A stretch of DNA of 64,000 nt from an uncultured Acidobacteriota bacterium. Lineage in GTDB: Bacteria > Acidobacteriota > Vicinamibacteria > Vicinamibacterales > 2-12-FULL-66-21. A program made the position numbers and the translations under genes. Every line of letters begins with the position of its first letter. Position 1 is the first letter of the stretch. Positions 1-64,000 of the stretch are shown in pieces. Location of the stretch: contig CAVUDT010000002.1 in assembly GCA_963740275.1 (NCBI GenBank), forward strand, positions 227,418-291,417. Direction: 5' to 3'. The notes under the pieces were generated by a model. That model was given only the letters and a program-made list of their open reading frames with translations. It was not told the origin of the DNA and searched no databases.

Positions 1-905
1 TCGCATCTACGAAGCGTTGAACTCCTCGAAGTACTCGATTCATGACCTGTCGCGGTGCAAAGGGGAAGGGGACGACAACGTTGCCAGGTTCAACATGCCG
101 CTGGAGTTCGGGATAGCTTTCGGCAAGGGATACCCTCACAAGGGTCGGCGCCTCCATCACTGGCTCGTCCTGCTCCCGAAGGAGCATTTCTACCGGAGAT
201 GCGTCTCGGACCTCGGTGCCTATGACCTGTCGACGCACGACAACACCGTCAAATCGATCGTGCAGCCAGTGATGTCCGGCTCGGCACCCGGCAGAATGCG
301 CGCCGCTGCCGGCCCGACGAGGTGCTCGAGGCGATGAAGCGCTTCCAGGCGGAGGTCGAAAAGTACCGGCAGGAATGGGGTGAGTATTATCCGTGGAAGG
401 ATCTGTTGCAGATCGCTCGCGAGTTCGCGCCGCTGCGGACCTCCGCGATGGCTCGCCTCCGATCAGCCGGACCGGGGCGATCGTCGCCGCCATCCTCGCC
501 GATCGTGCCAGAGGGCTCAGCACGATTCCCGACCAGGAAGTGGTGATCATCGCCGCGCATGGCCCGGTTCGCGACGACGAGAACCAGCGCTGGCTCGACG
601 ACATGCAGGTCCTTGCCAGCCATGTCGATGGCGCGACATCGTTCGCCGCGATCGAGTGGCTCACGGTTCGAGATGACGCGCCGCCACCGATTCGGGATGT
701 CGCGGCCGAGGAGCTTCGCGCGCTGGTTCGCAAGCACACGGCGGCAGGCCGCCGCGTGCTCATCGTGCCGCTGCTGCTCTCGTACGGCGGGATCGAGAAG
801 GGGATCCGGCAACGCCTCGACGGCTTGCCCTACGTGATGGCCACACAAGGGCTGATGCCGGACCCGCGGCTGGTCGACTGGGTACGGCAGGTCGTCGCCC
901 AATAG
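1..905 (+). pseudogene. 5'-truncated ORF ending in a CbiX/SirB-like (class II chelatase-type) domain; the coding frame switches twice (near 312 and near 462)
   Basis: C-terminal segment 393-905 reads ...VVIIAAHGPVRDDENQRW...RRVLIVPLLLSYGGIEKG..., which matches a CbiX half-domain pattern. The upstream sensible peptide continues in two other frames (2-337, then 322-~460). Both junctions lie in G/C runs. The N-terminal part has no recognisable family. Confidence 0.4.
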
Positions 906-962
906 TCGCCGCGGTTCGATCGGAGGATCTCAGGACGAGGCTGTTAGTCAGAATCCATCCGG

Positions 963-3341
963 TCAGTCGGGCTTTCCGGGCTGATCGCGACGCGCTACCG
1001 GCGCACGCCACGACACCACGAACTGTCCATCCACGGGACCGGCGGCGAACTCCCGCCAGCCGAAGAGCCGGGCCATGCCCGACAGCAGCGCCAGCCCGCC
1101 GTATTTGCTGCCCGGCAGCGCCCGATCGTCGCGGCGATCGTTCCCGATCGTGAAGTGGACCTCTTTCGTGACCCGGTCGCAGCGGATGGTGACCCGCGGC
1201 ACCGATCCGGCCGCGCCGTGGCGCATCGCGTTGGCGAGGACTTCGGTCAGGAAGAACCCGAGGCCGCCGCGCACCGGCAAAGTGGTTTCGTATTCCTCCG
1301 TCCAGTCCACCGAGCTCTCGAACGGTGGGCCGCCGGCGCTTCCCGACAACGGACCGTTGGTCCACCCGAGACGCGAACGCAGGTCGCTGTCGCCGCGCAC
1401 CTCCCTGAAGATCCGCTCGAGCGAGCTGAGCGTTTCGTGAACCTGCGCCGCGTCGACGACCGAATCGTGCGGGGGTGGGGGCTCGTTCCAGTGATCCAGC
1501 AGCCAGCCGGTCACATGGATCCGGCGCTGGAGATACTCCGCCAGCCACGGGCTGACCGAACCCGGCGACTCGAGCCGTCCGACGCTGCGCCGCAGGACAT
1601 CGGCCAGCGCGTCCAGGCCGTGCGACAGCAGGCCGGCGAGCCGGCGCCGCTCGTCGGTATGCGCCGCCGCTTCGACGTCTTCGAGCAGCAGCCGCAGGTC
1701 CGACCGCGGATCGACGACGAACAGGATCGCCAGCCGGTGCCGCTCGTCGGCCGCCAGCGCCTCGATCGGCGCGGTCACCGCGACCGAGCGGACGATGGCG
1801 AACTGTTCCGAGACGTCACCGGCAGCGGTTTCGACCCGGATCGGGACGCCGTAGGCGCGCCGGGCTTCGCTCGTCGCCACCTGGGTCCGTTCGTAGTGTT
1901 CGCGGGCACGCGGGTCGGTCGAGATGCGGTCGGCGAATCGCGCGCCGCGCCTGATCCCCATCGATTCGGCGACCTGGTTCGCCGAGACGATCTCGTCGGT
2001 GTTCGGGTCGACCACGATCAGCGGTACCTGCATGGTGTTGAGCAGGTTCTGCTTCTCGCCAAGAGCGCGGGCGGCGCGGTCGGCCTCGCGCTCCGCCCGG
2101 CGGCGATTGACTTCGAAGCCGGTCAGCAGCAGCGCGAGCACGACGCCGAGGAGCGCGACCGGACCGGCCGGAAATGACGGGGCCACGCTCGGGAAGAACG
2201 CCAGCAGCCAGGCGCGTTCGGACACGTGGAAAGCCGCGACCGCACCGGCGTCCTGCACCACCGCGTGGCTGATGGGGGAGAGGGCGCCGCTCGCCGTCCC
2301 TTCCCCGTTCACCACACCGTCCAGGGCCGCGCGCAGGGTAGCGGGAGCTCCGTCAGACAGGGCGCCGCGCAAGGTGGTCCAGGTCGCCGGCCCATCTTCG
2401 CCGACATGGACGATGGTTGCGGCCAGCGGAGCCGCGATCGTGGATGCGAACCGGTCCCAGTCGACGTCATGCGAGAGATCGAGCGCGAGCACGCCCGCCT
2501 GTCCGCCGCCGTCCATCGGCATCGTCAACGTGGAGACGAGCCCGCGACCGCCGAGGTCGACATAGAACCCGGAGTAACGAATGGAGTCCTGCTCGCCGTC
2601 GGGGAAGCGGAAGAAGAACTCCTCGGGGGCGAATGACGGCAGCGTCGGCCGCGACGACAGCTGCAGCGCCTCGCTCCGGGCGGCGCCGTCGGCGGTGTCG
2701 GTGGCGGCCGGCCAGGGAAGCGAGACCAGCGTGCCATCCTCGGCCAGCGCGTAGAGCCGGACCGGACGCGCGATCCGCCGCAGTGCGCCGTCCAGCCGCG
2801 GCCGGGCCGCGGCCATCGGCGCCAGCAGCCGGGCGACGAAGCGGTTCGAGCCGGCGTCCTGCTCGAGCCCGCGGCGGCGGGTCACCACGAACGTCCCGCC
2901 CGGCGCGGTCAGCAGCGCGAGCGACCGCCGCGAGGGACCGGCCTGCGCCAGCGATGTCTGCGCCGGCATCGGGACTTCGTGCGACGGGGCGGCGACGACG
3001 GTGCGCATCGCGTCCGCCGCGGGCACGAGCTCGTGCGGAATCCGATCGGTCTCGTCGGCGAGCCGCTCGAATGTCAGCGCGTCGGAGGGCGGCAGATGGC
3101 GGCGATAGGCGGACATCTGCTCGCGCAGCCAGGCGATCGCGCCGGGGGCCTCGATCGGCCGCGATGGCATCCGCTGCTGGACCAGCGCGAACACCGCCGC
3201 CGTCCGCGCCTGGCCGGCGCGCTCCTGCCAGGCCGTCCAGACGCTGCGCGCGGTCAGCCCCGCCAGCAGCACGAACAGGGCGAGTCCCGCGTAGAGCAGG
3301 CCGACGCGGCGGGCGCGCGCGGGGGGTAGAGTAGTGCGCAT
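963..3341 (-). CDS. sensor histidine kinase (two TM helices bracketing a ~330-aa periplasmic sensor; cytoplasmic PAS-like region; H-box; HATPase_c)
   Basis: N-terminal TM VGLLYAGLALFVLLAGL, second TM VALLGVVLALLLTGF, H-box-like ERRRLAGLLSHGLDA. C-terminal ATPase motifs GFFLTEVLANAMRHG, TIGNDRRD, KYGGLALLSGMARLFGW. Confidence 0.8.
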   Translation of the reverse strand: MRTTLPPARARRVGLLYAGLALFVLLAGLTARSVWTAWQERAGQARTAAVFALVQQRMPSRPIEAPGAIAWLREQMSAYRRHLPPSDALTFERLADETDRIPHELVPAADAMRTVVAAPSHEVPMPAQTSLAQAGPSRRSLALLTAPGGTFVVTRRRGLEQDAGSNRFVARLLAPMAAARPRLDGALRRIARPVRLYALAEDGTLVSLPWPAATDTADGAARSEALQLSSRPTLPSFAPEEFFFRFPDGEQDSIRYSGFYVDLGGRGLVSTLTMPMDGGGQAGVLALDLSHDVDWDRFASTIAAPLAATIVHVGEDGPATWTTLRGALSDGAPATLRAALDGVVNGEGTASGALSPISHAVVQDAGAVAAFHVSERAWLLAFFPSVAPSFPAGPVALLGVVLALLLTGFEVNRRRAEREADRAARALGEKQNLLNTMQVPLIVVDPNTDEIVSANQVAESMGIRRGARFADRISTDPRAREHYERTQVATSEARRAYGVPIRVETAAGDVSEQFAIVRSVAVTAPIEALAADERHRLAILFVVDPRSDLRLLLEDVEAAAHTDERRRLAGLLSHGLDALADVLRRSVGRLESPGSVSPWLAEYLQRRIHVTGWLLDHWNEPPPPHDSVVDAAQVHETLSSLERIFREVRGDSDLRSRLGWTNGPLSGSAGGPPFESSVDWTEEYETTLPVRGGLGFFLTEVLANAMRHGAAGSVPRVTIRCDRVTKEVHFTIGNDRRDDRALPGSKYGGLALLSGMARLFGWREFAAGPVDGQFVVSWRAPVARRDQPGKPD

Positions 3342-9700: not shown

Positions 9701-11249
9701 CCCGGGACGGCGGCGGCGAGGCCGGCGGCGGCCGCTGCCGGTGCGCCGGCACGGATCAGACGACGGTCCGGCAAGGTCTGCGACGGATCGAGCGCGCGCA
9801 ACTGGTGGGGCTGATCGCTGAGCGCGGCGACGAGAAACGCGACCGTCTCCGGCTGGGCAAAGAAATTGACGTGGGTCACGTCATTGCGGTCGATGTTGCC
9901 GCCCGGACCGAAGCATCCGATCCGTGATCCGGGAATGAAGGCGCCGCCCGACGGATCGACCCGCCATCCCCCCGCCGACGGCACGACCAGGTCGTTGGCC
10001 GTGTTGAAGAACTGGTCGACGCCGGTGTCGAGCAGCCGCTGCAGCACGGTGGCATTCGGGCTGTAGTTCGCCGCCAGTGCGAAGTAGCGGTCGGGCGGTG
10101 GTCCCGGCGGGGCCTGGAGCTCACGAATGAGGTCACCGTCGCCGTCCATCGAGTGCAGGCCGGGCAGGTCGCCCGACGCATGGCGGGCGATCCACACCAG
10201 ACCGTTCGCCACGAACTCGGCGCCGGTGGTGAAGGGGTTGTCCGGAAACAGCTCGAGCAGGTTCGCCACCCAGCCGACGGTGTCCTCCCAGCGTTGCGGC
10301 GTCGCCAGCGGCGTCCCTTCGTTGGGGGACGCCACCAGCACGGCGCGGCCCAGGGCGAAACGCGAGGCGAGCGCGTCGAACGCCTGCTGCCGTTCGACGA
10401 GGTTCCTCAACACCAGCCCGCCCCGCGAGTGGGTGATGACATCGAAGGTGAACGTCTTCTTCGGCAGTCCTTCGAGCAGCATCCGCGCGTTCTCTTCCGG
10501 CGTCCGGCTGATCGAGAAATGGTCGAACGCGAAGATGCGATCGCCGTAGAGCGGCGCCACTGCTTCGAAGAAGTTCGACGCGGCCAGGGGACCGAATGCG
10601 CTGGCGGCGTTCGAGAAGGTGCCGTGAATCAGCAGCAGCGACCGCTCGGTTGACGACGGCTTGCCGGGCGGCGAGGATGCCGGCGGCGAGCGTCTCCTTG
10701 TTGACCCTGAGCCAGGCCTCCTGCAGCCCTCGCGACTTCCACACGCTGGTCTCGAACATCCGGGCCAGCTTCGGCAGCACGAAACCGGCGGCGCTGTCGA
10801 CCACGCCGCCGGCGACCTTGACCACGATCGACCTTGACCGCCTTGCTGACGAAGCCGCGGCTGGTCGCGAGATCGGCGCCACCCTCCGCCCGGCGAACCG
10901 GGGCGACGAACCGGACTTCGACCGGACCGCCGCGGGTCCGGCCGACGGCCGTCCGCGGTCCGTGGAAGGTCAGCGCACCCGACGGGTAGCGCAGCACCAG
11001 CACGGCGGCCTCTCCCGGAGGGAGCTCGGCGCTGATGTCGAGAGTGGCTGGGGTGGGGCCCACTCCATGGGTGCGCGTTTCGCGCGTGCCCGCTCCGCGG
11101 ACCGGCGGCTTCGGGATCGCGACGAACTCTTCGGTTCCAATCGCGTGGGTCAGGAATTCGGGTGGCAGCCCGGGCATCGCCGCTTCGCGGCCACGCGTCG
11201 TCGCAGTCCTCTGGAGATCCCATCCCGGCGAGTTCAGTTTGACGGCCAT
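6724..11249 (-). CDS. ~1,500-aa multidomain protein: unknown N-terminal domain, alpha/beta-hydrolase (esterase/lipase-like), middle domain, CHAT caspase-like protease domain, and a C-terminal TPR-like helical domain. The reading frame is disrupted twice near the 5' end.
   Basis: Hydrolase: LLLIHGTFSN...FDVITHSRGGLV (nucleophile-elbow variant). CHAT: RVVHVAGHGEP...ELVFVNCCHLA...VRCVVAAGWAVDD (His/Cys dyad). C-terminal 400 aa is alpha-helical repeat. Start ATG 11249 has a GAGG SD. Frame changes at ~10830 (16-bp tandem duplication gaccttgacc...) and ~10665 (1-nt indel in gccgcccggc). All three frames read as sensible peptide across the junctions. Confidence 0.7.
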
Positions 11250-11266: not shown

Positions 11267-13218
11267 TTGCGGAAGCCTATATCGTTTTGCGCAGCCCGTC
11301 AGCCGTCCACGCCCGGCACAATCCCGGCCGAACCTGACTATGATGAGCGCGTGCCCGCGCTGCTCATCGCCGCCCTGATCGGCCTCATCGTCCAGCAGCA
11401 GCCGACGTTCCGCAGCCGCGTCGAGCTGATTCGCCTCGACGTCGGGGTGGTCGACAAGGACGGCCGGCCCGTCCGCGATCTGCGGGCCGAAGACTTCGTG
11501 GTGCGGGTCGACGGCGCCGAGCGGCGCGTTTCCTTCGCGCACTTCTACGGAGCGGATGACGGGCCCCGCGCCGTGCAGGGCGATGCGCCGGTCGCGGTCG
11601 CCTCGAACGCGAGCGCCGTCCCCGGTCGCGTCGTCGTCCTGGTGGCCGATCTCGAGAGCGTCACCCAGGGTTACGAGAAGCCGATCTTCGATACCGCCGC
11701 AGGTCTCATCGACCGGCTGGCACCGTCGGACGCGGTCGGCCTGCTTGCCCTCAACGGGCGCAGCGTGGAGCTGACGCGGGACCATCGGAAGGTACGGGAA
11801 GCACTCGAGGGTCTGCGCGGATTTGCCTCGTCACCGACGTTTCGCTACCGGATGTCGGTCCGCGAGGCGGAAGCGTTCCGGAGCCGGCGACACCCGGATC
11901 ATCGGGGAAGTGGTCGAGCGAGAGTGCCGGGCCAGCGACACCATGTGCCCGCGGGAGCTGCGGGACCAGGCGATGCCGCTGCTGATCGAGGCCGACCGCC
12001 GGACCCAGGTGCTGGTGACCGCTCTCACTTCGCTGTTCGAGCGCCTCGAACCGATCGACGCGCCGAAGAGCGTCGTGCTGCTGTCAGGCGGCCTGCAGCG
12101 CCGGCAGGGCAGTGCCGGATGGTTCTCGGACCTGGAGCGGCGATCGCGGTCGGCCGGGATCTCGATGTCGATCGTCCAGATCGAGCAGGCCGAGAACGAC
12201 GCGTCCCGCCGCGGGCCCGGCGGAACGCCGCCGCGCGCCGATCTGACCGACGGCCTGTCCGCGATCGCCGGAGCGACAGACGCCGCGATGTATTACGGCA
12301 TCGCGTCGGGCGACGGGCGCGTTCGACCGTATCCGCAGCGAGATCGTCAATTCGTACCAGCTTGGCGTCGAGAGCCTGCCGTCGGACGCCGGCGATCGCA
12401 AGCACCGGTTGACGGTCGAGGTCAGGCGCAACGGCGTGACGGTGCGGGCGCGCAAGGAGATTGTCGTGTCGAGCACGCCGCGGGCCGCGTCCAACCCGGT
12501 CGACCTGCTGGCCCAACCGATCGATTTCACCGAGCTGCCGCTCACCGTCGCCACCTTCACCACGCGCGGCGAGGAGCCGTCCACCTTGAAGGTCATCGTG
12601 CTCGTGGAGGTCAGCGCCGGCGCTGCCGAAGCCGCCGGAGGCAGCTATGCCTTCTCAATCGCCGCGGCGCCTGCGAAGCCGGTGTTCGAGACGGCGGACC
12701 GGCTTGCCGCCGGTTCGCCGGCTTCCGCTGTGGCGGCGCAGATCCCGCCGGGCCGTTACCGGCTGCGCGCGGCCGCCGTTGATACCGCCGGCCGGCAGGG
12801 CTCGCTCGACATGCCGATCGTGGTTGGGCTGCGGCAGGTTGGCGCGCTGCAGTTCAGCGATCTCATTGTCGGACGGCTCGAGGGGGCGTTCACGCCGGCC
12901 ACGCGCGTACCGCCAGGGGTCCCGCTCGTGTCGGTCCTCGAGCTGTACAGCGCGGACCCGTCTCAGCTCGAAGGGCTCGACGTGTCGGTGGAGCTGCGAC
13001 GCGCCGGTGGGACCACGGAGCCGACGCTGGTGCCGGCGGAAGTGCGCAAGACGAGTCTCGACCGACGGCGGATCGCCAACGCGAACATTCCGGCCACGTC
13101 CCTCGCCTCCGGCACATGGCTCATCTCGGCGGTCGTGCGGCGAGGCAGCGAGGTCCTGGGTCAGGTAACCCGCGGCATTTCCGTCAGCCCCCCAGTTGGC
13201 GGGGATCAGCTCAAGTGA
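11267..13218 (+). CDS. VWA-domain protein of the acidobacterial TIGR03436-like family (~650 aa), frame-disrupted at ~11885 and ~12323
   Basis: N-terminus ...LIVQQQPTFRSRVELIRLDVGVVDKDGRPVRDLRAEDFVVRVDG parallels the two downstream paralogs (LRSGVELVSLNVSV...). Three consecutive ORF pieces (11267-, 11823-, 12409-13218) each read sensibly and join by 1-nt shifts. The start is uncertain (TTG 11267 or GTG 11351). Confidence 0.6.
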
Positions 13219-13231: not shown

Positions 13232-14762
13232 ATGACTGACACCAACAACAACGGTCTGATCGACCGCCGTTCGTTCATCGAGACCCTTGCCGCCCTGGCA
13301 ATCGTGCCGGGCGGGAGCCGCCCGGCAGGCGCAGCGGAGCAGCAGCCCGCGCCGGCGTCACGTCCGGCCGGGACGTTCAACGGCATCCAGATGGGCCCGC
13401 ACACCATCCTGGACGAAGGGATCGAGCGCACACTCGACCTGATCGGCGAGACGGCCGGGATCAACGCCGTGATGCCGTACAGCCATGCCTACAACGCCGG
13501 CCTCGTGAAGCGACTGCGGGACCGCGCCGATCATGGCGTGCCGCTCACCGATAACACCGCGCGCCGCTTCCCGCTGGTGTGGGTTCGCACGCACGATCGG
13601 TACTACAAAGACACCAGTCTCCGGCACCAGGTCGTCGCCCCGGAAGACGAACACTCGAAGCGCGATCTCTTCGCCGAGCTCGTCGAGCCCGCACGCAAGC
13701 GCGGGATGAAGATCTATGCCCGCATCCTCGAGTCATCGGCGATGAGCCGGGTCGTGGCCAACTACGCGCGGGTGGTCACCCGCGACGTCGACGACAAGCC
13801 GACCAACGTCGCCTGCTGGAACCATCCGGAGTACGTCGCGTTCTGGGCGGGGACGATGGAAGACCTGTTCCGCAGCTACGACCTCGACGGCGTCCAGTGG
13901 GGAGCCGAGCGGATGGGGCCGCTCATGAACGTCATCTCCCCATGGAACAACAACCCGCCGACCTGCTTCTGTGAACATTGCCGCGCCCGCGGCCGGGCGG
14001 TCGGGATCGAGGCCGAGCGCGCGCGCCAGGGTTACAAGGAGCTCCACGCATACGTGCAGGGGCAGATGGCCGGCGCCCCGCGTCCGCCCGAAGGCATGTT
14101 CGGCGGGTTCCTGAGGGTACTGATCCGATATCCCGAGATCCTGAGTTGGGAGTAACCAGTACCGTCTCGGCCGCGAAGCGATCTGCGCGGCGATGTACGC
14201 GCGTGCCAAGCAGGTCAAGCCGTCAGCGGAAATCGGCTGGCACGTCGATCATCAGCCCTCGAGCTGGGACCTCGTCTACCGCGCCGAGATGAGTTACGCG
14301 GAGATGGCGCCGCACAGCGACTTCGTCAAGTTCATCGGCTACCACAACGTGTTGTCGCCGCGCATCCGGGATTGGTATCTCCCGCGCTTCCAGAAGTCGA
14401 TCCTGGGAGAGATCTCGCTCGACGCCTCGCTCGAGCTCTACTACGACCTTTTCGGCTACGACAAGAAGGTGGAGCCGTCACTCACCGAGCTGGGGCAGCG
14501 CGGGTTCACGCCTGACTACGTGTTCAGGGAAACGAAGCGCAGCGTCGCGAGCGCGGCGGGCAAGACGAAGATCTACACCGGTGTCGGCTTCGATGTGCCG
14601 GGAAGCCCGGCGGATGATCCCGACCAGATTGCCGAGGCCGTGCGCCGGTCCTTTGCCGCCGGCGCCCACGGCATCGTCGTGTCGCGTGAATACGAGGAAA
14701 TGAAGGTCGAACACCTCCGCGCGGTCGGCCGCGGGTTCAGGGACGTGACCCGAAACGCCTGA
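13232..14762 (+). CDS. hypothetical exported protein with a twin-arginine signal (RRSFIETLAALAI), ~510 aa; a frame shift near 14145 joins two ORF pieces
   Basis: Tat motif after MTDTNNNGLID. There is a CxCxxC-like segment (PTCFCEHC). The second piece (14163-14762) continues in the +1 frame without an upstream start of its own. No family recognised. Confidence 0.45.
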
Positions 14763-14920: not shown

Positions 14921-15950
14921 ATGCGCTCTGCCCGGATCCTATTACTTTCTGTCGTCGTCGTCGTCGCTGGCCTGCCCGTTTCGGCCCAGCAGCCGAAGCC
15001 GTACGACAGTTTCTATACGTTCGGCGACAGCCTCGCCGACAACGGCAACCTGCTGACCTACACCGCGCTTCTCAGAGCGGACCCGGCCATCCCTCCGTCG
15101 GTGAGCCCGCACCGGACTTACTTCCAGGGACGGTTCTCAAACGGGCCGGTTGCCTTCGAGTACCTGTGGTGGATGATCAAGCAGAAGCCGTTTCAGCTGA
15201 ACGGCGGGCTGCAGCCCTTCTTGAAGGCGCCGGTCCTCGGGAAGACTGGCGCAGTGAACTTCGCATTCGGTGGCGCTACCACTGGCCCGATCACGGAGCT
15301 GCCTGGGGGAATCTTCATCCCCGGCCTCAGCCGGCCAGGTCGCGCTGTTCAAGGCGGCGTTAGTCGGAAAGAAGCCATCGTCGCGCGCGCTCTACGCGAT
15401 CCTTGCCGGCTCCAACGATTACTTCAGTCTGCCGAACATTCCGGACGGCGGGCAGCAGGCGGTTGCCGCCCAGGTCGTCGGTAACATCGCCCAGGCGGTG
15501 GCCGCGCTACACAAGATCGGCGCCCGCAACCTGGTGCTGATCAACCAGCCGGACCTGGGAGCGATTCCGCTGGTCGCCTTCGATCCGGAGCGTGCCGCCA
15601 GCCTGTCCAGGCTCTCGGCCGCCCACAACGTGGCGCTTGCCGCCGCCATCCCGGCGCTCGAGGCGGCGTTGCCGGGCCTCAACATCATTCCGATCGACCT
15701 GGCGAACGTGCTGGGCGGTCTTCCTCCCGGCATCCAGCTCACGCCGGCGATCGACTCCATGCTGCTGCCGCCACCCGGCCTCGGCGGACTGCCGATGTCG
15801 GTCTGCCTCTTCGTCGCCCCGCAGTTCTGCGAAGACGTGCCCACGTTCGACGTCGGCTTCGGCTTCCTGTTCTGGGACGCCGAGCACCCGACGACGGCGA
15901 TTCACCAGGCCCTGGCGCAGTATCTCTACTTCGCGATCCAGAGCAACTGA
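14921..15950 (+). CDS. secreted SGNH/GDSL lipase/esterase; frame shift near 15335
   Basis: Signal peptide MRSARILLLSVVVVVAGLPVSAQQ. GDSL block YTFGDSLADNGN. C-terminal DxxH block LFWDAEHPT. SD gaggaaagg lies 7 nt before ATG 14921. The two ORF pieces join at ccggccagg. Confidence 0.7.
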
Positions 15951-17271: not shown

Positions 17272-18260
<989 letters not shown>

Positions 18261-18277: not shown

Positions 18278-19806
18278 GACCCGGCGGCAGATCCCTGAAG
18301 TGATCGACCAGCGCATCGACGAGATCCGGGATGGTATAGCGCTGCGGCTGCACCGTGGTGACGATCCCGAGCTGTTGCGCGGCTTCGGCGGTGACCGGCC
18401 CGATCGACGCGACCACGGTGCTGCGCAGCAGGTCGGCGGCCTGTTCCTGCCCGTGGATCTGGGCGAAATTGCGGACCGTGGAGGCGCTGGTGAACGTCAC
18501 GGCGTCGATGCGCCCGTCGAGCAGCATCCGGTAGATGTCGACGCCCCCGCCTGGATCCGCCGGGGCCAGCGTCGTGCGGTAGGCCACGACGTCGGTGACC
18601 TCGGTGCCGGCGGTGCGGAGTTCGTCGAGCAGCGTGTCACGGGCGATGTCGGCGCGCGGGAGGAGGACGCGCTTCCCCCGCAGCGGGCCGGCGGTCCGCA
18701 GCGAGTCCATCAGGGCCTCGGCCCGGAACTCCGGCGGCGTCAGGTCGGCGCGGATTCCGTAGCGCAGCAGCCGGGACGCGGTCGACGGTCCAACCGTGCA
18801 GATCTTCACGTCCTTCAGCTGGCGCACGTCGGCCACCGAGGTCAGCCGCGACATGAAGCTGTCGACCGCGTTGCCGCTGGTGAAGATGATCCAGTCGAAC
18901 GAGGAGGCGTCGGCGACCGCCTGGTCGAGCGGTGCGGGGTCCTCGGGTGCAGCGATCCGGATGGTCGGCGCCGGGATCGCTTCCGCTCCCCGTTCCTCGA
19001 GCATCTCGATCAGCTCCCCGGCCTGTTCGCGCGAGCGGGTCACCACGATGCGCCGCCCGAAGAGCGGCCGGTCGTCGAACCAGCGGAGATGTTCGCGCAA
19101 TGCGGCCACCCGTCCGATGACGAACACCGCCGGCAGATCGACCCGCGCATCCGCCGCAATGGTCGCGAGCGTGCCGGTCACGGTCTGCTGTCTTGCGGTC
19201 GTGACGTTGTAGACGAGGGCGGCGGGCTCCTCCGGCGGACGGCCGTGAGCCACCAGCGCCGACGCGATCGCGCCGATCTGGCGGGCGCCGGCGTAACAGA
19301 CGATGGTGCCGCCGAGGCTGCCGAGGCCGCTCCAGTTGACGTCCGGCGCCTCTTCCGATTCCCCCTCGTGCCCCCGCACGAAGGTCAGCACGTCGTCGGC
19401 CCCCGGGTAGGTGAGCGGGATGCCGGCGTAGGCGGCGCCGCCGATCGCCGCTGGAATGCCGGGCACGATCTCGAACGCGGATGCCCTGCTCCCGGAGCAG
19501 CAGCGCTTCCTTCCCGCCGCTGTCGAACACGAACGGGTCTCCCCACTTCAACCGAACGACCGATTTGCCCTCGCGCACCTTTTCCGCGAGCAGGATGCTG
19601 ATCGCCTCCTGGTCCATCGATCGCGGCGCCGCCGGGCCGACGTCGATCCGTTCCGCCCCCGGACGGGCGGCCCGCAGGAGCGCCGCCGGCACCTGGTGGT
19701 CGTAGACGACGACGTCGGTGGTCTCGAGCAAAGCCCGTCCACGGACGCTGATCAGCGACGGGTCGCCCGGGCCGGTTCCGACGATGTAGACGCAGAGTGG
19801 TGTCAT
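18261..19806 (-). CDS. cobA-hemD: uroporphyrinogen-III C-methyltransferase fused to uroporphyrinogen-III synthase; frame shift near 19474
   Basis: N-terminus VYIVGTGPGDPSLISVRGRALLETTDVVVYD (SUMT). ...FEIVPGIPAAIGGAAYAGIPLTY. The C-terminal half RRIVVTRSREQAGELIEMLEERGAEAI...FDWIIFTSGNAV is the HemD fold. Confidence 0.75.
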
Positions 19807-20745
19807 GAATTCAGCAGTTCCCGGGCGCCGCGTGACGCCAGCTCCCGACCGAGCCGCGTCCCGGCCCCGGCCGGGTCGCCCGGCTCTCCCGTGATCGCCG
19901 CTTCGATGATTTCCGTGCCGTCCGGCGACGCGGCGATCGCCCGGACGAGCAGCTCGCCGGACTGTATTTCAGCGAAGGCGCCGAGCGGCAGCTGACAGCC
20001 GCCACCGAGCTCCTCGACGACCGCCTGCTCGGCGGCCAGCGCCGCGCGTGCCGGAGCGTCGTTCACCCGTGCCAGCAGTTCGAGGATCTCGCCGTCCGCC
20101 GCGCGCGCCTCGATTGCGATGATGCCCTGTCCGGGGGCGGGCACGCAGTCGGTCACCGCCACCGCGGCGGTGATGCGATCGGCGAGGCCGAGGCGCCGCA
20201 GACCCGCACAGGCGAGGATCAGGGCGTCCACGGTCCCGCCATCGAGCTTGCGAAGGCGCGTGTCAACGTTACCGCGGATCGGCTCGAAGCGGGCGTCGGG
20301 AAACATCCGCCGGAATTGTGCGACCCGCCGGGGGCTGCCGGACCCTATCAGGGACAGAGGGTGCGGGGGGTGCGCACACGGGGTGCGGGGGGTGCGACGT
20401 GGACAACCCGTCGTGCGGGGGGTGCGGAAGGACCAGGGCGTCGCGTGGGTCTTCCCGCGGCAGCACGGCGCCGATGGTCAGGCCGGCGGGGGAGACGGCG
20501 GGCATGTCCTTGGCGCTGTGGACGGCGAGGTCGATCGTTCGGGCGAGCAGCGCTTCGTGGATCTCCTTGACGAACACGCCCTTGCCGCCGATCGCGGCGA
20601 GGGGGGCGTCCTGCTGGCGGTCGCCGCCGGTGGTGATCGTGACCAGCTCGGTCTCGACCCCGGCCTCGCTCAGCGCCGCCGCGACGGCCCGCGCCTGCCA
20701 GAGCGCCAGCGGGCTGCCCCGGGTGCCGATGCGCAGCGCCCTCAC
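19803..20745 (-). CDS. hemC: hydroxymethylbilane synthase (porphobilinogen deaminase), interrupted by a 52-nt repeat insertion that shifts the frame
   Basis: N-terminus [18 protein letters not shown]...[15 protein letters not shown]...[11 protein letters not shown]...[10 protein letters not shown]-terminus [40 protein letters not shown] start overlaps the hemA stop (GTGA). Confidence 0.8.
20362..20413. repeat. 52-nt insertion made of extra copies of a G-rich 14-mer (GTGCGGGGGGTGCG on the + strand) inside hemC
   Basis: Three copies of cgcaccccccgcac on the coding strand. Removing 20362-20413 restores [21 protein letters not shown] in one frame. Confidence 0.6.
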
Positions 20746-35265: not shown

Positions 35266-35330
35266 CCCATGCCCCATCCCCCATTCCCCATCCCCGATTC
35301 CCCGACTCCCCATCCCCCCGACCCCGATTG
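35266..35330. repeat. heptamer tandem repeat, family 2 (CCCCATC/CCCCATT/CCCGATT...), in the divergent promoter region
   Basis: cccatgccccatcccccattccccatccccgattccccgactccccatccccccgaccccgattg. Confidence 0.6.
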
Positions 35331-35364: not shown

Positions 35365-35698
35365 ATGGAACCGCTCCACGGACTGCTGGACATGCTGGTG
35401 CTGCAAACGCTGATCCTCGGGCCGTTGCACGGGTACGGCATTGCCAAGTCCATCCACGACAGGTCCGATGAAGCCCTGGCGATCGAGTTCGGTTCACTCT
35501 ATCCGGCGCTGAAGCGCCTCGAGCTCAAGGGCTGGATCGCGTCGAAGTGGGACCTGTCCGAGCACAACCGGCGGGCCAAGTACCTATCGGCTCACGCCGG
35601 CAGGCAGAAAAAAGCTTCGGCAAGAGCAGTCAGACTGGCAGCATTTCGCCTCGGCCATCACCCGGGTCATGAAGATCGTACCGGAGGGCCAGTCATGA
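35365..35698 (+). CDS. PadR-family transcriptional regulator; 1-nt frame shift near 35588
   Basis: LDMLVLQTLILGPLHGYGIAKSI...GSLYPALKRLELKGWI...NRRAKY|YRLTPAGRKKLRQEQSDWQHF... The stop overlaps the permease start (ATGA). Confidence 0.7.
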
Positions 35699-39935: not shown

Positions 39936-40576
39936 TCAAGAGCGCTGAACGACTCCGGCGCCACCCCGTGAAGGGATCCGGTACGCCTTTTTGATCTCGA
40001 TCGCTGGAGCGAGGCTCTGGCCCTGGACGGGCTGCCGCTGAATGACGCGCACGACATCCAGGCCGGCGACCACCCGGCCGAACGCCGCCGTGCCCTGGCC
40101 ATCGTCGAATCGCTTGCCACCGTGGTTCAGCGAGGGCTGATCGTTCAGGTGAATCGACGAACCCGGACCGCGCCGAGTCGGCCTGGTCGCCGCGCGGCAT
40201 CGAGACCGTGCCGACGACGTGGGTGAGTCCGGTGACGCTGGTGCGCTCGAGCGGGATTGCCGGAAATCGCTCGGCGCCGCGCGCCGGGTTGATGTCTGCC
40301 TGGATGATCTCCAGGAGAGGACGGTTGGGCAGGTTGGGCGTGTAGTTGTCGGCCCGGGTCGCGCGATGAACGCGGCCGCCGTCGTAGAACCCTCCGTCGA
40401 CGTACTTGAGGAAGTTGCCGGCGGTGATCGGCGCCCGAGCCGATGTCGATGGCGAGATCGACGTTGCCGAACGCGGTTTCGATCCGGACGAGGACCTCGC
40501 CTCGCGCCGGATCGGATTGCTGGGCCGCCGGGGCCGCCAGCAGGACGGCGGCGAGGAGCATGACTCGTGTCCGCAT
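39936..40576 (-). pseudogene. secreted cyclophilin-type peptidyl-prolyl isomerase, frame shifted twice (~40425 and ~40185)
   Basis: Signal MRTRVMLLAAVLLAAPAAQQ. PITAGNFLKYVDGGFYDGGRVHR. ...GTVSM... then ...HLNDQPSLNHGGKRFDDGQGTAAFGRVVAGLDVV in a third frame. Confidence 0.6.
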
Positions 40577-52925: not shown

Positions 52926-55548
52926 TTGTTTCGACTGGATGGAGCGGACGGACGGGTTTCGCTGCGGGCCGTCGACATCCAGCTCCCTCGCGAATATCCA
53001 GAGCAACGGGTGATCGCCGATGTATTGGAGGATGCCGAGGGCTCGCTGTGGATCGCCGCGCCCAGTGGCTTATATCGCCGAAGGCCGGACGGCCGATCCG
53101 ATCGGTACACGCGAGCCGACGGCCTGCCGAGCGATTTCCTTCAAGACCTGCTCGAGGACCGTGCGGGCCGGCTGTGGGTCGGCACCCGGCTTGGCGGGTT
53201 CTTTCGGTTTCAGGCTCGCCCGGCGGGGGGCCGCCCGCTCATCGACCAGGCTTTCACCTATCTTCCCGAGGATGAATATGGCCTGCAGACGTCCTGGGTG
53301 TTCCAGCTCTTCGAGACATCCGACCGGCGGTTGTTGCTTGCGACCGCCCGTGGGCTGGTGGAGTTCTCTACGGATGCGGCCCGACCGCAGCGCTTCCGCA
53401 ACTACACGGCGCGGAACGGGCTGAGCGATCACAACATCACGGCCATCGCCGAAGATTCCGGCGGCAACGTGTGGCTCGGCACGAGCACCGCGGGCGCGAT
53501 GAAGTTGACGCGAAGCGGCTTCACGTCCTACAACGACCTCGACGGAATCGCGTCCGTGAATGCGATCTTCGAAGATCGCGCCGGGCACGTCTGCTTCCGC
53601 GGTACGTCGTTCGACGTCCGTTCCAGCGTCTTCGCGCATGCCAGAAAGGATCTCAATCGCGCGCCGGATCCTCTGATCAAGCCGCAGCTTGGATGTCTGG
53701 ACGGTCAGCGGGTCAACTGGTTCAAGCCGTCGGCGGTCAACGATCTCGGCTGGGTCATCGAGCGGGTCACGCTCCAGAGCCGCAGTGGCGACTGGTGGGT
53801 CGGCACCGGGGAGGGGCTCTACCGCTTCCCGCCGTCCGCCGATTTCGCACAGCTCGCAACCGCACGACCGGCAGCCGTCTATACGGTGAAGGCCGGCCTG
53901 GCCGGCCCGCAGATCTACCGGCTGTTCGAAGACTCCAGAGGGAACGTCTGGATCTCGACCACATCGCCGACCGCAAGCGGGCTGGCGCGGTGGGAACCAG
54001 GGAGTCAGCGCATCACCAGTCTGGCGGCCCGGCCGGACCTCGCCGCTCTCGCGGACGACCGGCCGGCGCGATCCTTCGCCGAGGACGCGGCCGGGAGCAT
54101 CTGGATCGGTTTTGACAGCGAGCTGGTGCGCTACAAAGAGGGCCGGTTCGACATCTTCGATTCGGACGACGGGCTGCCGCCCGGCGCGATCAGCGACATC
54201 CACCCCGACCGCGCCGGACGGATCTGGTTCGCGTCTTCGCAGAGCGGACTCGTGCTGGTCAGCAACCCGGGTGAAGACCGTCCTGCTTTCATCAGTTACA
54301 CGACCGCCCACGGCCTGTCGAGCAACAACACCGAGGTGATCAGCGAGGATCGCCGGGGCCGGATCTATCTCGGAGGCGGGCGCGGCCTGGACCGGTTCGA
54401 CCCTGCGAGCGGCGTGGTCAAACACTTCACGACCGCCGATGGTCTGCCATCCGGGCTCTTTCGCACCGCCTTTCACGACCGGGCCGGCGTGCTCTGGCTC
54501 GGCATGACCGGTGGCCTTGCGCGGCTCCACCAGGCGTCGGAAGAGGTGCAGCCACCCCCGCTCGTGTTGATCAGCGCTCTGCGCTTGCGAGGCGTACCGC
54601 AAGCGATCTCTCCGCTGGGCGAACGACGCCTGGTGTATCCGGCCTTCGGGGCGGACGAGAATCAAATGCAGATCGACTTCACCGGGCTGAACTCGCCGGG
54701 AGAGGTTCTGCGTTACCAGTACCCGGTTGGGAGGCAGCGACGAGGATTGGAGTGTCCTCTCGGAGCAACGAAGTGTGACCTACGCCAGCCTGTCGCCTGG
54801 GCGGTACACGTTCGCCGTCCGCGCAATGAACTCCGACGGCGTCGTGAGCTCGGCCCCGGCCGAAGTGATCTTCGCGATCATGCCCCCGATCTGGCAGCGC
54901 CCGTATTTCATCGCCTTGCTCGCCCTCGCCTGCGGGGCGCTGGCCTACGCGGCCTACCGTTACCGGGTCGCGAGGCTGCTCGAGATCGCCGACATGCGCA
55001 CGCGCATCGCCACGGATCTCCATGACGACATCGGCGCCAATCTGACCCGGATCGCACTGCTAACCCAGGTCGTGGGCCACGGCCGCCACGACGATGGGCC
55101 GGTGAGCTCGATCGCCCGGATCGCCCGCGAATCAGTTGACTCGATGCGCGACATCGTCTGGGCCATCAACCCCGGGCGTGAGAGCCTGGTGGATCTGACC
55201 CGCCGCATGCGCCAGCACGCCGACGAGATCTTCACCTTGCGCGAGATCGAGCTGCACTTCAGCGCGCCAGGACCGGCCGACAACATCAAGCTCGGGGTCG
55301 ACGTTCGCCGCGATCTCCTGCTGATCTTCAAGGAAGCCGTGAGCAACGTCGCTCGTCACGCCGGCTGCAGGAGTGTCCGCATCGATCTGCAGCATCGCCG
55401 CGGACGCCTGACGCTGACGGTCAGCGACGACGGGACCGGCTTCGACACCTCGATCGAGACCGACGGCCAGGGGCTGACCAGCATACGGCGGCGGGCCGCC
55501 AGGCTGCAGGGTCAGGTCGCGATCACCTCTACTTCTTCGGGGTACTGA
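52926..55548 (+). CDS. sensor histidine kinase with a ~690-aa beta-propeller (Reg_prop repeats) plus Y_Y_Y sensor region, one TM, and HisKA_3/HATPase_c; lacks an N-terminal signal/TM; frame shift near 54722
   Basis: Repeated ...G.LW.GT..GL blades. Y_Y_Y RLGGSDEDWSVL...SPGRYTFAVRA. TM PYFIALLALACGALAYAAY. H-box TDLHDDIGANLTRIAL. ATPase ...TVSDDGTGFD...GQGLTSIRRR. TTG start with a stop immediately upstream. Confidence 0.65.
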
Positions 55549-57765: not shown

Positions 57766-59607
<1,842 letters not shown>

Positions 59608-61132: not shown

Positions 61133-61963
61133 CGATGTGCCCGATTCAGGAAAAGGGAGCGATCGAGCTCTATTTCTACGGCGAGCTCCACGGACGCGGA
61201 GCGCACCGGTGTCGAAACCCACCTTGCTCAATGCCGGGAGTGCACCGCGGCGCTCGACGAGTTGCGGGTGATCCAGGCAGCGCTCGCCGCCCGCCCGGTG
61301 GTGTCGGCTCCTCCATCCGGCGACTGGTCCGGCTTCAGCGAACGTCTCGACGCTGCCCTGCGGACCGAAGCGGGACCGGCAGTGCCGCTGCCATTTGTCT
61401 CGAGACCGGCGGCGGCCCGCCGTCCGTTCGTCGGGCTGCTCGCCACCGCCGCGCTGCTCGCGGTTGTCTCGGCGAGCGTGTTCATGGCCTCGCAGGCCGG
61501 TCAGCGCATGCTGCGCAACGAGGGCGGTACCGGCAATGCTGGCCCTGGTGGTAGTGACGATCTCTATGCCCGGGCAGCGATCGCGCAGGCTGCGGCGGAC
61601 GCTGCGTCGCCGATCCAGGCAGGGCTGACGGCGGTCGGCGCCCGGCATCTCGAGCGCTCGAAACTGGTGGTGCTGGGGCTGTCGGCAAAGGCGCCGGGCG
61701 CCATGCGGGCGACCGACTGGGCCTACGAGCGCGAGCTCGCAACCGCGCTGTTGACCGACACCCAGCTTTACCGGATGGCGGCCGAGGAGCGCGGGCTGAC
61801 TTCGCTTGCGGGAGTGATGCGCGATCTCGAGATCGTGCTGCTCCAGACCTCGATGGCGCAGGCGACCGATGACACCGCGCTGCCGCAGATCCAGCGGTTG
61901 ATCCGCAAGCGCGGTCTCGTCGAGAAGATGGACGGCGTGGGAACCACAGGATTGATGCCATGA
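61129..61963 (+). CDS. anti-sigma factor (zf-HC2 N-terminus, one TM, periplasmic domain); frame shift near 61192
   Basis: MTMCPIQEKGAIELYFYGELHG | DAERTGVETHLAQCRECTAALDEL...; TM FVGLLATAALLAVVSASVFMA. ATGA overlaps at both ends. Confidence 0.6.
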
Positions 61964-63289
61964 AGTACCACCTCCCCCTCTCTCCGTGCCTGGATCTTCG
62001 CCGCCCTCGCCGCGATAGCGGCGGCCACGCCGGCCGGCGCCGCCGTCGAGCCGCTGCAGTCGCCGCGGATGGAACGGGCCAAGGACCTCATCGCCGACGA
62101 ACAATGGGAACGCGCGATCGAGCAGCTGAAGGCGGCGGTCGCGGATGCCAAGGAACGCCACAAGGACGAAGCGCTGTTCTGGCTGGCCCACAGCCAGCAC
62201 CAGGCGCGGGATCTCGCCGCCGCGGTGCAGACGATCTCGCTGCTGGAGCAGCAGCACCGGGCCAGCCCGTGGGTGAAGCCGGCCCGTTCGCTGCGGGTCG
62301 AGATCGCGCAGAAGCTGCGGCGCAACGATGTGCTCTGGTGGACGGCGGATCCGCCGCCGCCCCCGGCTGCGCCGCCGGCCCCCACGCCCGCCGCGCCGCC
62401 CGCCGCCCCGCTCCCGACACGTACTGGTCGTCCGCCGGCGGCTCCGGCGAACGCACCAGTGCCACTCCCGGCCAGCGTTCCTCCGCCGCCTGCGTCCCCC
62501 GCGCCAGCGGCGCCGGCCGCTCCGGCGGCAAGCCCGACACCGCCGCCGCCGCCACCGTCGCCGCCCAGGTCCGCCGGGATGCGCGCCTTCACCCGCACCG
62601 GCGAAGGCACCCCGATGCCCTCCAGCCTATGGATTCCTGCGGACTGGGCTCCCGACATGAATCTGCGCATCCAGGCGCTCGGCAGCCTGATCCAGACGGA
62701 CGCGGTGCGGGTCATTCCGATCCTCCGCGAGATTGCGCTCGAAAGCCCCGACGCGCACGAGGCCAGCCGCGCAGTCTTCGTGCTGGCCCAGTCGGGCCGG
62801 GCCGACGCGAGATCCACCGTGGTCGAAGTTGCCAAGAGCGGCAGTGAGCTGGTTCAGATCGCCGCCGTCCGCGAGCTCGGGCGATTCGGCGGACCCAAAG
62901 CCGCGGAGGAACTGCTGCAGGTCTACACCAGCGTCAACCTGCGGGTGAAGTACCAGGTCGTTAATTCCCTTGGCGAGCGCTCCGCCACCAGCGCCCTGCT
63001 GCGCATTGCCGAAACCGAGCCCGACCTGAAGCTCCAGGAGAGCGCTATCGTGCGTCTCGGCCAGGCGGGTGCGCGCGATCAGCTGGTGCGGTTCTACAGC
63101 CGCGCGTCCCCCGACCTCAAACGCCCGATCATCATCGGGCTGTTCATCGCGCGGGCCGAAGACGAGCTGATTCGCATCGCCGACCACGAGCGCGACGAGC
63201 CGATCCGCCTGGAAGTACTCACCCGACTCCGCCTTCTCGGCACGGAGAAGGCGCGGAGCTACCTCGAAAAGCAGAACAAGAACAGGTAA
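61960..63289 (+). CDS. exported repeat protein: TPR-like N-domain, ~90-aa Pro/Ala-rich linker, C-terminal HEAT/PBS-lyase-type repeats; frame shift ~25 nt after the start
   Basis: MKYHLPLS | RAWIFAALAAIAAATPAGAAVEPLQ signal peptide, readable only after a 1-nt shift. PPPPAAPPAPTPAAPPAAPLP... Repeats ...VRELGRFGGPKAAEELL... Confidence 0.55.
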
Positions 63290-63372: not shown

Positions 63373-63411
63373 TAGGCGCGCTGGCCCCGGGTTCGCAGAA
63401 GGATTTTCGCG

Positions 63412-63870
63412 ATGCATCGCCGCCGTGCTCTCGTTCTGTTCGTCAACTCCGTCGTCGCGCTGATCGGCGGCGGTCTCTCCGCCGTGCTCGGCGCCTTCGC
63501 CTGGCGCCCGACCAGGGCGGCCGAGGGTCGCTGGCTCAGTGCCGGCGCGCTCACCGACCTGACCCCCAACGTCCCCGTGCCGCGGGTGCTCGCGGTGTCG
63601 CGGCAGGACGGCTGGTACCGCGAGCGCGCCCGTGAGACGGTGTTTCTCGTCTGGGACGGCGACAAGAGCGTCCACGCGCTGTCGGCGACCTGCACCCACC
63701 TCGGTTGCCGGGTCCGCTGGGACGACGCGACCACGCACTTTCGCTGTCCGTGTCACGGCGGCGTCTTCGACGCGCAGGGGAACGTCGTCGAAGGGCCGCC
63801 GCCGCGGGCGCTGAATAAGGTCGATGCGCGGATCGACGCCACGGGGGGCACCGTCCTGGTGCGGCTGTGA
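63412..63870 (+). CDS. Rieske [2Fe-2S] subunit of a cytochrome bc-type complex
   Basis: N-terminal TM. CTHLGC...CPCHGG boxes. Confidence 0.85.
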   Translation: MHRRRALVLFVNSVVALIGGGLSAVLGAFAWRPTRAAEGRWLSAGALTDLTPNVPVPRVLAVSRQDGWYRERARETVFLVWDGDKSVHALSATCTHLGCRVRWDDATTHFRCPCHGGVFDAQGNVVEGPPPRALNKVDARIDATGGTVLVRL

Positions 63871-64000
63871 AGCGGCTCTTCGACTGGCTGCAGTCACGGA
63901 CCGGGTTCCGCGGGGCGCAGCACGCGCTGCTCGACGAACCGCTGCCCCCCGGCACCGGCTGGTTCTTCACGCTCGGCAGCATCCTGCTGGCGCTGCTCGG
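63867..64000 (+). CDS. cytochrome b (bc/b6 complex), 5' part only (window ends)
   Basis: GTG start overlapping the Rieske stop (GTGA). ...TGWFFTLGSILLALL typical cytochrome b N-terminus. Confidence 0.65.
   Translation, partial: MKRLFDWLQSRTGFRGAQHALLDEPLPPGTGWFFTLGSILLALL

Follow-up and report, generated by a model that had tools for sequence, protein, structure and literature searches.

The window, the whole stretch of 64,000 nucleotides analysed here, comes from a soil acidobacterium and carries a P0129-like gene abutting a cbiX fragment, CHAT/DUF7379, VWA-like, Tat-signal and GDSL lipase genes, heme-biosynthesis genes, a dynamin-like GTPase gene, PadR, cyclophilin and ADOP permease genes, and genes for a propeller histidine kinase, an anti-sigma factor and a TPR/HEAT protein. 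Candidate frame disruptions were found by codon-usage Viterbi segmentation combined with a stop/start audit, and each was judged by whether a single homologue or a single profile HMM reads over the junction. According to this analysis, 21 small frame-disrupting lesions lie in the 64 kb, approximately one per 3 kb, and a homologue or profile HMM reads straight over the junction in 20 of them (Table 1). The pervasive frame disruption claimed in the initial annotation was borne out, nearly every junction listed there being recovered by the segmentation and the audit.

Table 1. Small lesions and the truncated cbiX of the window, with the extra or missing base in square brackets
Gene	Position	Strand	Lesion	Evidence
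P0129-like (bases 1 to ~440)	274..282	+	1-nt deletion, T missing, TCC[T]GGC	four homologues
cbiX (sirohydrochlorin chelatase), 3′ half	434..905	+	5′ half missing	homologue matches
CHAT/DUF7379, downstream junction	10660..10675 (~10668)	-	net +1	stitched N-terminus alignment
CHAT/DUF7379, upstream junction	10828..10833 (~10830)	-	net +1, context AAGGTCGATCG	stitched N-terminus alignment
VWA-like, first junction	11870..11890 (~11880)	+	net +1	single-frame HSP
VWA-like, second junction	12300..12325 (~12312)	+	net +1	single-frame HSP
Tat-signal / GHL6-like	14154..14155	+	extra A inside GTAC, GAGTA[A]CCAG	homologues read ILSWEYQYRLGREA
GDSL lipase	15315..15340	+	net +1 (~15327)	Lipase_GDSL HMM 2-207/208 unbroken
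hemB	17662..17663	-	extra base, gene strand AAGTAC[C]TG	1-nt gap against both L001 and L002
cobA-hemD	19479..19480	-	extra base, gene strand GGCATC[C]GCG	1-nt gap against L001 and L002
hemC	20349..20424	-	76-nt variable loop, net +1	Porphobil_deam HMM 1-206/207 covers loop
Dynamin-like GTPase	30175..30175	+	extra T, CAGCA[T]GCTG	1-nt gap, same column, L001/L002/L047
PadR	35583..35584	+	extra C, AAGTAC[C]TAT	next-frame reading and HMM score
Cyclophilin, downstream junction	40140..40165	-	net +1 (~40151)	Pro_isomerase HMM
Cyclophilin, upstream junction	40415..40445	-	net +1 (~40427)	Pro_isomerase HMM
ADOP permease (41136-43830), 1/4	41300..41320	+	net +1	intact-paralogue alignment
ADOP permease, 2/4	41615..41635	+	net +1	paralogue alignment; MacB_PCD HMM 2-203/207 covers junction
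ADOP permease, 3/4	42060..42080	+	net +1	intact-paralogue alignment
ADOP permease, 4/4	43660..43680	+	net +1	paralogue alignment; FtsX HMM 2-120/120 covers junction
Propeller histidine kinase	54722..54724	+	extra C, CAGTAC[C]CGG	Y_Y_Y HMM 5-64/65 covers junction
Anti-sigma factor	61188..61189	+	extra C, GAGCTC[C]ACG	zf-HC2 over junction
TPR/HEAT	61968..61969	+	probable extra C just past start codon, ATGAAGTAC[C]ACC	sequence inference

The heme genes and the dynamin-like gene gave the sharpest alignments. Removal of one base leaves 347 codons for hemB, 514 for cobA-hemD and 575 for the dynamin-like gene (345, 513 and 575 in the L001 orthologues), and the ALAD (2-316/317) and TP_methylase (2-211/212) HMMs are continuous over the hemB junction at ~17663 and the cobA-hemD junction, respectively. 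Beside the damaged hemB, hemC and hemD, both hemA and ccsA are intact. The lesion of hemC is placed to the loop as a whole, not to an exact base; the loop contains CGCACCCCCCGCAC three times, and L002 has an in-frame repeat insertion of its own at the same place. A 52-nt insertion had been proposed for hemC, which cannot be shown, since 52 nt is what separates copies one and three of CGCACCCCCCGCAC. More generally, the two lesions of 16 bp and 52 nt described as multi-nucleotide were not confirmed as such, the net change in hemC being +1, and exactly one extra base is seen in four nucleotide or protein-guided alignments.

At the start of the window, the initial annotation placed a CbiX-like gene at 1-905 with junctions at ~312 and ~462. 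The frame break in the 5′ part stood and maps to 278, where an inserted T scores best (694 versus 642 for the runner-up position) and four homologues (P0129, P0135, P0160 and P0169) read VMSWL over the deletion, the sole net -1 lesion of the 21. The cbiX identity of bases 1 to ~440 was rejected, as a P0129-like protein is encoded there, and the frameshift at ~462 did not hold either. The cbiX homologues, 300-325 aa in length, match the fragment over their C-terminal ~150 aa only, and the homology begins near nt 455. Position ~462 is a structural breakpoint at which an unrelated P0129-like gene abuts a 5′-truncated cbiX; in L058, the P0129-like gene is placed in a different operon context. The truncation is a structural change, which basecalling error cannot produce, and as such is a counterpoint to an artefact.

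Between 10 and 16 kb, the stitched CHAT N-terminus (1-431) forms one continuous alignment to P0246, P0249 and more than 100 other proteins, and residues 33-646 of the stitched VWA-like protein form one HSP in one frame in the metagenome contigs L049, L050 and L051 (E = 1e-167 to 1e-177). For the Tat-signal gene, one A removed scored 1198 versus 1156 at the runner-up position, and homologues of ~510 aa show 80-85% identity at 98-100% coverage of the stitched protein. The homologues of the Tat, CHAT and VWA-like genes are all uninterrupted.

In the 35-62 kb region, the extra C in PadR fuses the PadR N-terminus onto the ADOP permease ORF starting at 35365, while the next frame continues as YRLTPAGRKKL... 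to a stop overlapping the permease ATG, and correction raised the PadR score from 51.3 to 75.7 bits. The Pro_isomerase HMM (2-157/159) is unbroken over both cyclophilin junctions. Residues 4-893 of the stitched second ADOP permease form a single HSP with residues 14-914 of its intact paralogue, and the restored ORF has 894 codons without a stop. The corrected histidine kinase reads LRYQYRLGGSDEDW, and the corrected anti-sigma N-terminus matches zf-HC2 over the junction with 29.8 bits (cut-off 22.2). In the TPR/HEAT gene, the signal-peptide frame is without a start codon and the ATG at 61960 is one frame off, which makes an extra C the probable lesion. Four genes are hit repeatedly, the ADOP permease four times and the CHAT, VWA-like and cyclophilin genes twice each. 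The ADOP permease, CHAT and VWA-like genes are accessory genes in which real decay would be tolerable, a further counterpoint to an artefact.

The lesions are strongly biased in direction: in 20 the net change is +1, an extra base, and in the remaining one it is -1 (binomial p = 2e-5). The stitched or corrected ORFs contained no nonsense codons, against 21 frameshifts, and neither IS elements nor dispersed repeats were found in the window. The spacing of the lesions fits a uniform rate, and their clustering was not significant (dispersion p = 0.078). With lesions this frequent (one per 3 kb), a gene of 2-3 kb stays lesion-free with a chance of 0.4-0.5, so that long intact genes are expected, and the intact long neighbours once cited as evidence against sequencing error lose their force.

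Long homopolymers are the classic signature of long-read error. Most junctions had been assigned to runs of at least 3 G or C, but this is no better than chance, as 24% of random positions lie within 3 nt of such a run and half within 10 nt. The base-resolved lesions lie in runs of 1-2, with one of the ten in a run of at least 3 G or C, and the comparison of indel positions with homopolymer length, proposed earlier as a check, did not support long-homopolymer error. The base-resolved lesions do not concentrate in homopolymer runs, and the absence of long homopolymers at them is another counterpoint to an artefact. GTAC was found at 5 of the 21 lesions (p = 1.4e-6); four of these read AGTAC[C], in four unrelated genes and with the extra C right behind a Tyr UAC codon. 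The contexts of the other 16 lesions are heterogeneous, and AGTACC is read in frame at 14 other sites. A recurrent GTAC context is expected of a systematic error, and the association may reflect a context-specific, possibly methylation-related, bias of basecalling or polishing.

We compared the affected genes with seven relatives (L001, L002, L004, L005, L006, L047 and L057), wherever the stored stretch includes the gene. The stitched hemB, cobA-hemD and hemC aligned in one frame over the full length in L001, L002, L004, L005 and L006, and the stitched dynamin-like protein did so in L001, L002, L047 and L057, indicating that affected genes are intact in independently assembled related genomes. 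The dN/dS analysis of affected genes, another check suggested earlier, gave values against L001 of 0.057, 0.137 and 0.121 downstream of the lesions, in line with the 0.10-0.17 of four intact neighbours. This result supports the conclusion that selection is not relaxed on either side of the lesions, although the measure is blind to very recent inactivation, with dS to the nearest relative near 0.8.

When the same switch detector was applied to 13 control loci, 12 of them (about 255 kb together) showed 0-2 weak switches each. The thirteenth, L045, showed 18 switches in 21 kb, of which 16 were net +1, and these included hemA, cobA-hemD (three switches) and hemB. In the window, the detector reported 21 switches, corresponding to 17 true lesions and four gene boundaries or the cbiX breakpoint, and the lesions in the Tat, PadR, hemC, anti-sigma and TPR genes escape it. 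L045 belongs to the Microflora Danica MAGs, for which Flye assembly of Nanopore reads alone was followed by a single round of Medaka (PMC12313526), and its error profile is that of the window. The source contig of the window (505,986 bp) is without annotation in NCBI and ENA, in line with a long-read MAG.

From these observations we infer, with high confidence, that the frame disruptions are uncorrected consensus errors of a long-read metagenome assembly and not decay. That sequencing error is the more economical explanation had been proposed from the start, and it gained support from the 20 of 21 net +1 lesions, the unrelaxed selection, the intact relatives and the L045 syndrome; moreover, the lesions are single-base indels, and a one-base correction restores a full-length ORF. 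The window contig would itself be a low-coverage long-read assembly, a Vicinamibacterales MAG contig whose consensus retains single-base errors at a rate of about one per 3 kb. Nearly all of these errors would be spurious extra bases, each shifting the reading frame, so that gene callers would see genes split, truncated or falsely fused, as for hemB, hemC and cobA-hemD and for the PadR N-terminus, which is joined to the permease. The affected genes, including hemB, hemC and hemD, would almost certainly be intact in the organism itself.

Genuine recent pseudogenisation, in an early-decay or hypermutator lineage with about a third of its genes inactivated, heme biosynthesis included, would take at face value lesions that are truly present in the deposited sequence, and it would accommodate the repeated hits in the ADOP permease, CHAT, VWA-like and cyclophilin genes, the structurally truncated cbiX and, at the dS given above, the lack of a dN/dS trace. 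We consider it very improbable. Bacterial mutation and real pseudogenes are biased towards deletion, which the 20:1 excess of insertions opposes, and the mixed lesion spectrum of decay was absent from the window, as were nonsense codons, IS elements and dispersed repeats. Further points against it are the joint damage to hemB, hemC and hemD next to an undamaged hemA and ccsA, the recurrence of the syndrome, with its direction, in the unrelated Nanopore MAG, the recurrence of AGTAC[C] in four unrelated genes, and the unrelaxed selection downstream of lesions (dN/dS 0.057-0.137, very recent events being undetectable). Decay of the Mycobacterium leprae type involves nonsense mutations, deletions, IS activity, relaxed selection and deletion bias; the window shares with it the large fraction of interrupted genes, biosynthetic genes included, but differs in its single-base lesions (20 insertions and one deletion), unrelaxed dN/dS and restorable full-length ORFs. 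A mixture, mostly of consensus errors with a minority of real changes (candidates being the truncated cbiX, the loop in hemC and perhaps the ADOP permease with its four hits), is possible though doubtful. The 5′ half of cbiX is replaced by an unrelated gene that has a different operon context in L058, but misassembly would explain the junction equally well; the loop in hemC is variable and bears repeats, with the separate insertion in L002. Given the observed rate, any one gene would take at least four hits in 2.7 kb with a probability of ~0.013, but a four-hit gene is unremarkable once approximately eight long genes are allowed for, and the four ADOP lesions are all net +1 like the others, in a restored ORF that is stop-free.

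Recoding, in which real extra bases are bypassed by programmed +1 frameshifting, quadruplet decoding (e.g. UAC-C as Tyr) or transcriptional slippage, would suit the 20 of 21 +1 lesions and the four AGTAC[C] sites with their extra C directly behind the Tyr codon. We judge it extremely improbable. The orthologues of hemB, cobA-hemD, hemC and the dynamin-like gene are without the extra base, and therefore no shift site is conserved; the 16 lesions in other contexts and the 14 AGTACC sites read in frame also argue against it. No shifty motif combined with a stimulator is common to the junctions (GTAC being at 5 of 21), and neither a stop-codon nor a Shine-Dalgarno-type stimulator pattern was seen at them. 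Slippage would call for A or T runs of about 7 or more; in the window such runs reach 6-7 nt at most and are very few, and none of the junctions lies in one. Euplotes-type and bacterial prfB +1 frameshifting use a defined shifty codon in a stop-codon context conserved in orthologues; as in Euplotes, many genes of the window need a +1 shift, but their contexts are heterogeneous and their orthologues unshifted. The wider proposition that the extra bases are real, at ~1 per 3 kb and favouring AGTAC, with either the genes recoded (+1 or quadruplet) or heme synthesis and a third of the genes very recently lost through an insertion-biased mutational process, is hardly credible.

The consensus-error reading agrees with published Nanopore-only MAGs, in which, as in the window, ORFs are interrupted by single-base indels spaced roughly a kilobase apart and the effect is confined to particular MAGs (PMC12313526); L045, from the same catalogue, shares the +1 bias in the same heme genes. 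In examining the catalogue, the authors looked for Nanopore-associated errors among MAGs of low coverage, and they tied a lower coding density to low GC and to long homopolymers (PMC12313526). Unlike this pattern, the window, putatively of long-read origin, has a GC of 67% and lesions in runs of 1-2 bases. Methylation-induced Nanopore errors are strain-specific, motif-bound and systematic (PMC11610573), which resembles the GTAC association at 5 of 21 lesions. However, the published errors are substitutions of purine by purine or pyrimidine by pyrimidine at ambiguous positions (PMC11610573), whereas those of the window are insertions, and a methylation link is thus a guess.

Taken as assembly error, the frame disruptions are not a real biological feature, and their biological interest is low and their practical interest modest. 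If the extra bases were real, they would point to a free-living Vicinamibacterales lineage with +1 recoding or an insertion-biased mutational process. As consensus errors, they provide a profile (insertion-biased, not homopolymer-bound and GTAC-enriched) useful for polishing or filtering long-read MAGs, and similar MAGs, L045 among them, are affected likewise. For the organism itself, annotation, pathway reconstruction and pseudogene counts drawn from this contig would be wrong for about a third of the genes, and the annotation would contain spurious fusions, among them that of PadR and the ADOP permease.

Because long spurious ORFs occur everywhere in DNA as GC-rich as this (63-70% over the 64-kb window), the frames were segmented by a Viterbi model whose codon usage was learned from the window's own long genes, and every segment was audited for starts and stops close by. 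Almost all of the frame junctions listed in the initial annotation were recovered independently in this way, and the small lesions number 21, about one per 3.0 kb. The automated detector gave 21 switches in the window versus 0-2 weak ones in each of 12 control loci, indicating that the pervasive frame disruption is a real observation, far above background. Of these 21 switches, 17 are true lesions and the remaining 4 mark gene boundaries or the breakpoint at cbiX; the detector did not catch the lesions in the Tat, PadR, hemC, anti-sigma and TPR genes, which were identified by other means. Frame switches at 4376, 13184, 16954, 20799, 39972 and 41124 correspond to normal gene boundaries, and a Viterbi switch at 61123 is the ordinary sigma/anti-sigma boundary.

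The pieces of each interrupted gene were then stitched, and the joins were tested for continuous coverage by one homologue or one profile. Two short-read MAGs (L001 and L002; hemA identity 77-83%) are syntenic with 17.3-32.2 kb of the window and allowed lesions to be placed by nucleotide alignment. Minus one base, hemB, cobA-hemD and the dynamin-like gene each have the length of the L001 orthologue. The Pfam models ALAD, TP_methylase and Porphobil_deam run end to end over the joins, and hemB, cobA-hemD, hemC and the dynamin-like gene are in a single frame in all of seven relatives' loci reaching each gene.

Lesions placed in the window (bracketed base, extra or missing)
Gene	Position	Sequence	Nature and evidence
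P0129-like gene	278	TCC[T]GG	1-nt deletion, the sole one in the window
Tat-signal protein	14154/5	GAGTA[A]CCAG	homologues have ILSWEYQYRLG there
hemB	17662/3	AAGTAC[C]TG	exactly one extra base; nucleotide alignment to L001, L002
cobA-hemD	19479/80	GGCATC[C]GCG	exactly one extra base; nucleotide alignment to L001, L002
hemC	20349-20424	three copies of CGCACCCCCCGCAC	76-nt variable loop, net +1
Dynamin-like gene	30175	CAGCA[T]GCTG	extra base; nucleotide alignment to L001, L002, also L047
TPR/HEAT	61968/9	ATGAAGTAC[C]ACC	probable lesion; signal-peptide frame without start codon; ATG one frame away

Elsewhere, more than 100 proteins align continuously with residues 1-431 of the stitched CHAT N-terminus, the stitched VWA-like protein matches three metagenome contigs, each as a single HSP in one frame, and the Tat-signal protein has homologues of ~510 aa with 80-85% identity over 98-100% of the length. 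Pfam models span the joins in the GDSL lipase, cyclophilin (two joins), propeller kinase (Y_Y_Y), PadR and anti-sigma (zf-HC2) genes; the anti-sigma lesion is resolved to 61188/9. For the ADOP permease, its intact paralogue covers the four stitched pieces from end to end. Gene order is not conserved around the homologues of the Tat protein and NCS1, so these loci yielded no orthologues for the GDSL, cyclophilin and ADOP genes, whose lesions were placed to within about 15 nt by Pfam or paralogue evidence. The frames at the 5′ end of the TPR/HEAT gene suggest an extra C near its start.

Through its frameshift the PadR gene loses its stop, and the N-terminus therefore reads into an ADOP permease. 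The resulting 1024-aa ORF (35365-38439) is a false fusion of the two; the real permease start is an ATG near 35695, overlapping the true PadR stop. Two PadR-ADOP pairs, cyclophilin and the M16 peptidase (32.8-38.4 and 40-47 kb) are absent at the corresponding position in the related loci L047 and L057, where NCS1 is directly adjoined by an amidohydrolase and by a glycosyltransferase with the dynamin-like gene. These two stretches of the window are accessory regions.

At two places the sequence departs from its relatives in a manner that single-base miscalls do not explain. The reported 52-nt insertion in hemC proved to be the spacing (30 + 22 nt) of the CGCACCCCCCGCAC copies. The loop has 23 codons in L001 and 40 in L002, including L002's own in-frame repeat, and its form in the window is possibly real, possibly a misassembly. 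Lying between DALVLP and IGSGSPRR (20349-20426), it is a hotspot of repeat insertions; in L002 (~11650-11780) a hairpin-forming unit, GGGCCCGGCTTTATGCCGGGCC, is present there twice in frame. The second place is the beginning of the window, where bases 1 to ~440, initially read as cbiX-like, encode a homologue of P0129, P0135, P0160 and P0169, a family of 165-220 aa with no Pfam match. The supposed frameshift at ~462 is the point where this gene meets a cbiX without its 5′ half (about 150 aa), and a further 5 codons (LDRHP) are absent as well. Another locus, L058, carries the P0129 homologue in a different operon, between 1449-aa and 511-aa genes, with no cbiX close by. The truncation of cbiX may reflect a misjoin, or else a genuine deletion or rearrangement.

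Repeats were also seen between genes. Two tandem ~300-nt copies, 88% identical, lie 3′ of the dynamin-like gene (30607-31200); the unit is absent from L001 and L002 and has no Rfam match. Short arrays of 7-nt or 14-nt units (CCCAATC, AATCCGC and complements) occur at gene ends (28727-28817, 35266-35303, 46948-47096 and 57688-57765). The ~790 nt at 5936-6723 are without convincing coding signal, and 6464-6646 is 79% identical to an L001 intergenic segment (2912-3096) in a non-syntenic position; the stretch may be a dispersed non-coding element.

The small lesions are strongly directional, 20 being net +1 and 1 net -1 (p = 2e-5), and wherever the base can be named, a single nucleotide is in excess within a run of just 1-2. 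The homopolymer signature claimed in the initial annotation is not there: 1 of 10 base-resolved lesions falls in a G/C run of at least 3, compared with a quarter of random positions that are no more than 3 nt from such a run. A homopolymer origin was rejected on this test. Five lesions are at GTAC, for which the window has 102 sites (p = 1.4e-6); four read AGTAC[C] (hemB, 17662; PadR, 35583; propeller kinase, 54722; TPR start, 61968) and one GTA[A]C (Tat protein, 14154). At two of the GTAC sites the ScaI-type palindrome AGTACT would be restored. GATC, with a frequency of about one per 84 nt, was not significantly in excess in the window or in the Nanopore-only locus L045. The GTAC insertions may mark a methylated motif of the organism, and a causal role of its methylation in the AGTAC[C] insertions is a guess, because methylation-induced Nanopore errors as published are substitutions (PMC11610573).

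The hemA relatives place the window in Vicinamibacterales, Acidobacteriota, and its best non-self protein identities are 93% (NCS1), 85% (Tat protein) and 83% (hemA). Exact-protein look-ups with typA, hemA, P0001, P0004 and P0126 found no same-species sequence (closest non-self 85-93% identical) for a direct test of the extra bases, and Rfam and tRNA scans gave nothing usable as an independent indel check. An unplanned control, which we consider decisive, was L045 (CAVQZZ010000002.1, MFD00031.bin.2.164), a GTDB species-representative MAG of the Microflora Danica long-read catalogue. The only reads used for that catalogue were Nanopore reads, assembled with Flye and put through a single Medaka round, and its authors looked for Nanopore-associated errors in low-coverage MAGs (PMC12313526). 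In L045, 21 kb contain ~18 frame switches, of which 16 are net +1, in genes at 8.7-18.5 kb: cobA-hemD occupies four frames (three switches), and hemA, hemB and a neighbour two each. The same essential genes are disrupted as in the window, at different positions. Score differences were too small for reliable siting of the L045 lesions at the base level. Five other MAGs named as Microflora Danica and five short-read MAGs had none or 1-2 borderline switches.

Two unrelated assemblies share an insertion-biased, MAG-specific, context-dependent pattern of the kind that characterizes technical error, and consensus insertion errors very probably account for the syndrome overall; within it, a minority of sites may be real, though this is less likely than not. 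Early decay of the genome had been weighed against an indel-prone assembly, and the intactness of equally long neighbours was held to count against sequencing error. This argument has little weight, because at this lesion rate a gene of 2-3 kb has a probability of 0.4-0.5 of escaping, and lesion spacing is not significantly over-dispersed (p = 0.078). Real bacterial pseudogenes show a deletion bias, whereas the window shows the opposite. No stop codons occur in the stitched ORFs, and dN/dS downstream of the lesions (0.06-0.14) is indistinguishable from that of intact hemA, ccsA, the gene at 22878-23795 and atpB (0.10-0.17). True wholesale pseudogenisation is given very little credence, and recoding even less. 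We infer that the lesions of this contig are very probably artefacts, and the main line of the initial annotation was right in both observation and interpretation. The annotation of L045 will be badly fragmented, and the frame disruptions themselves are of low biological interest.
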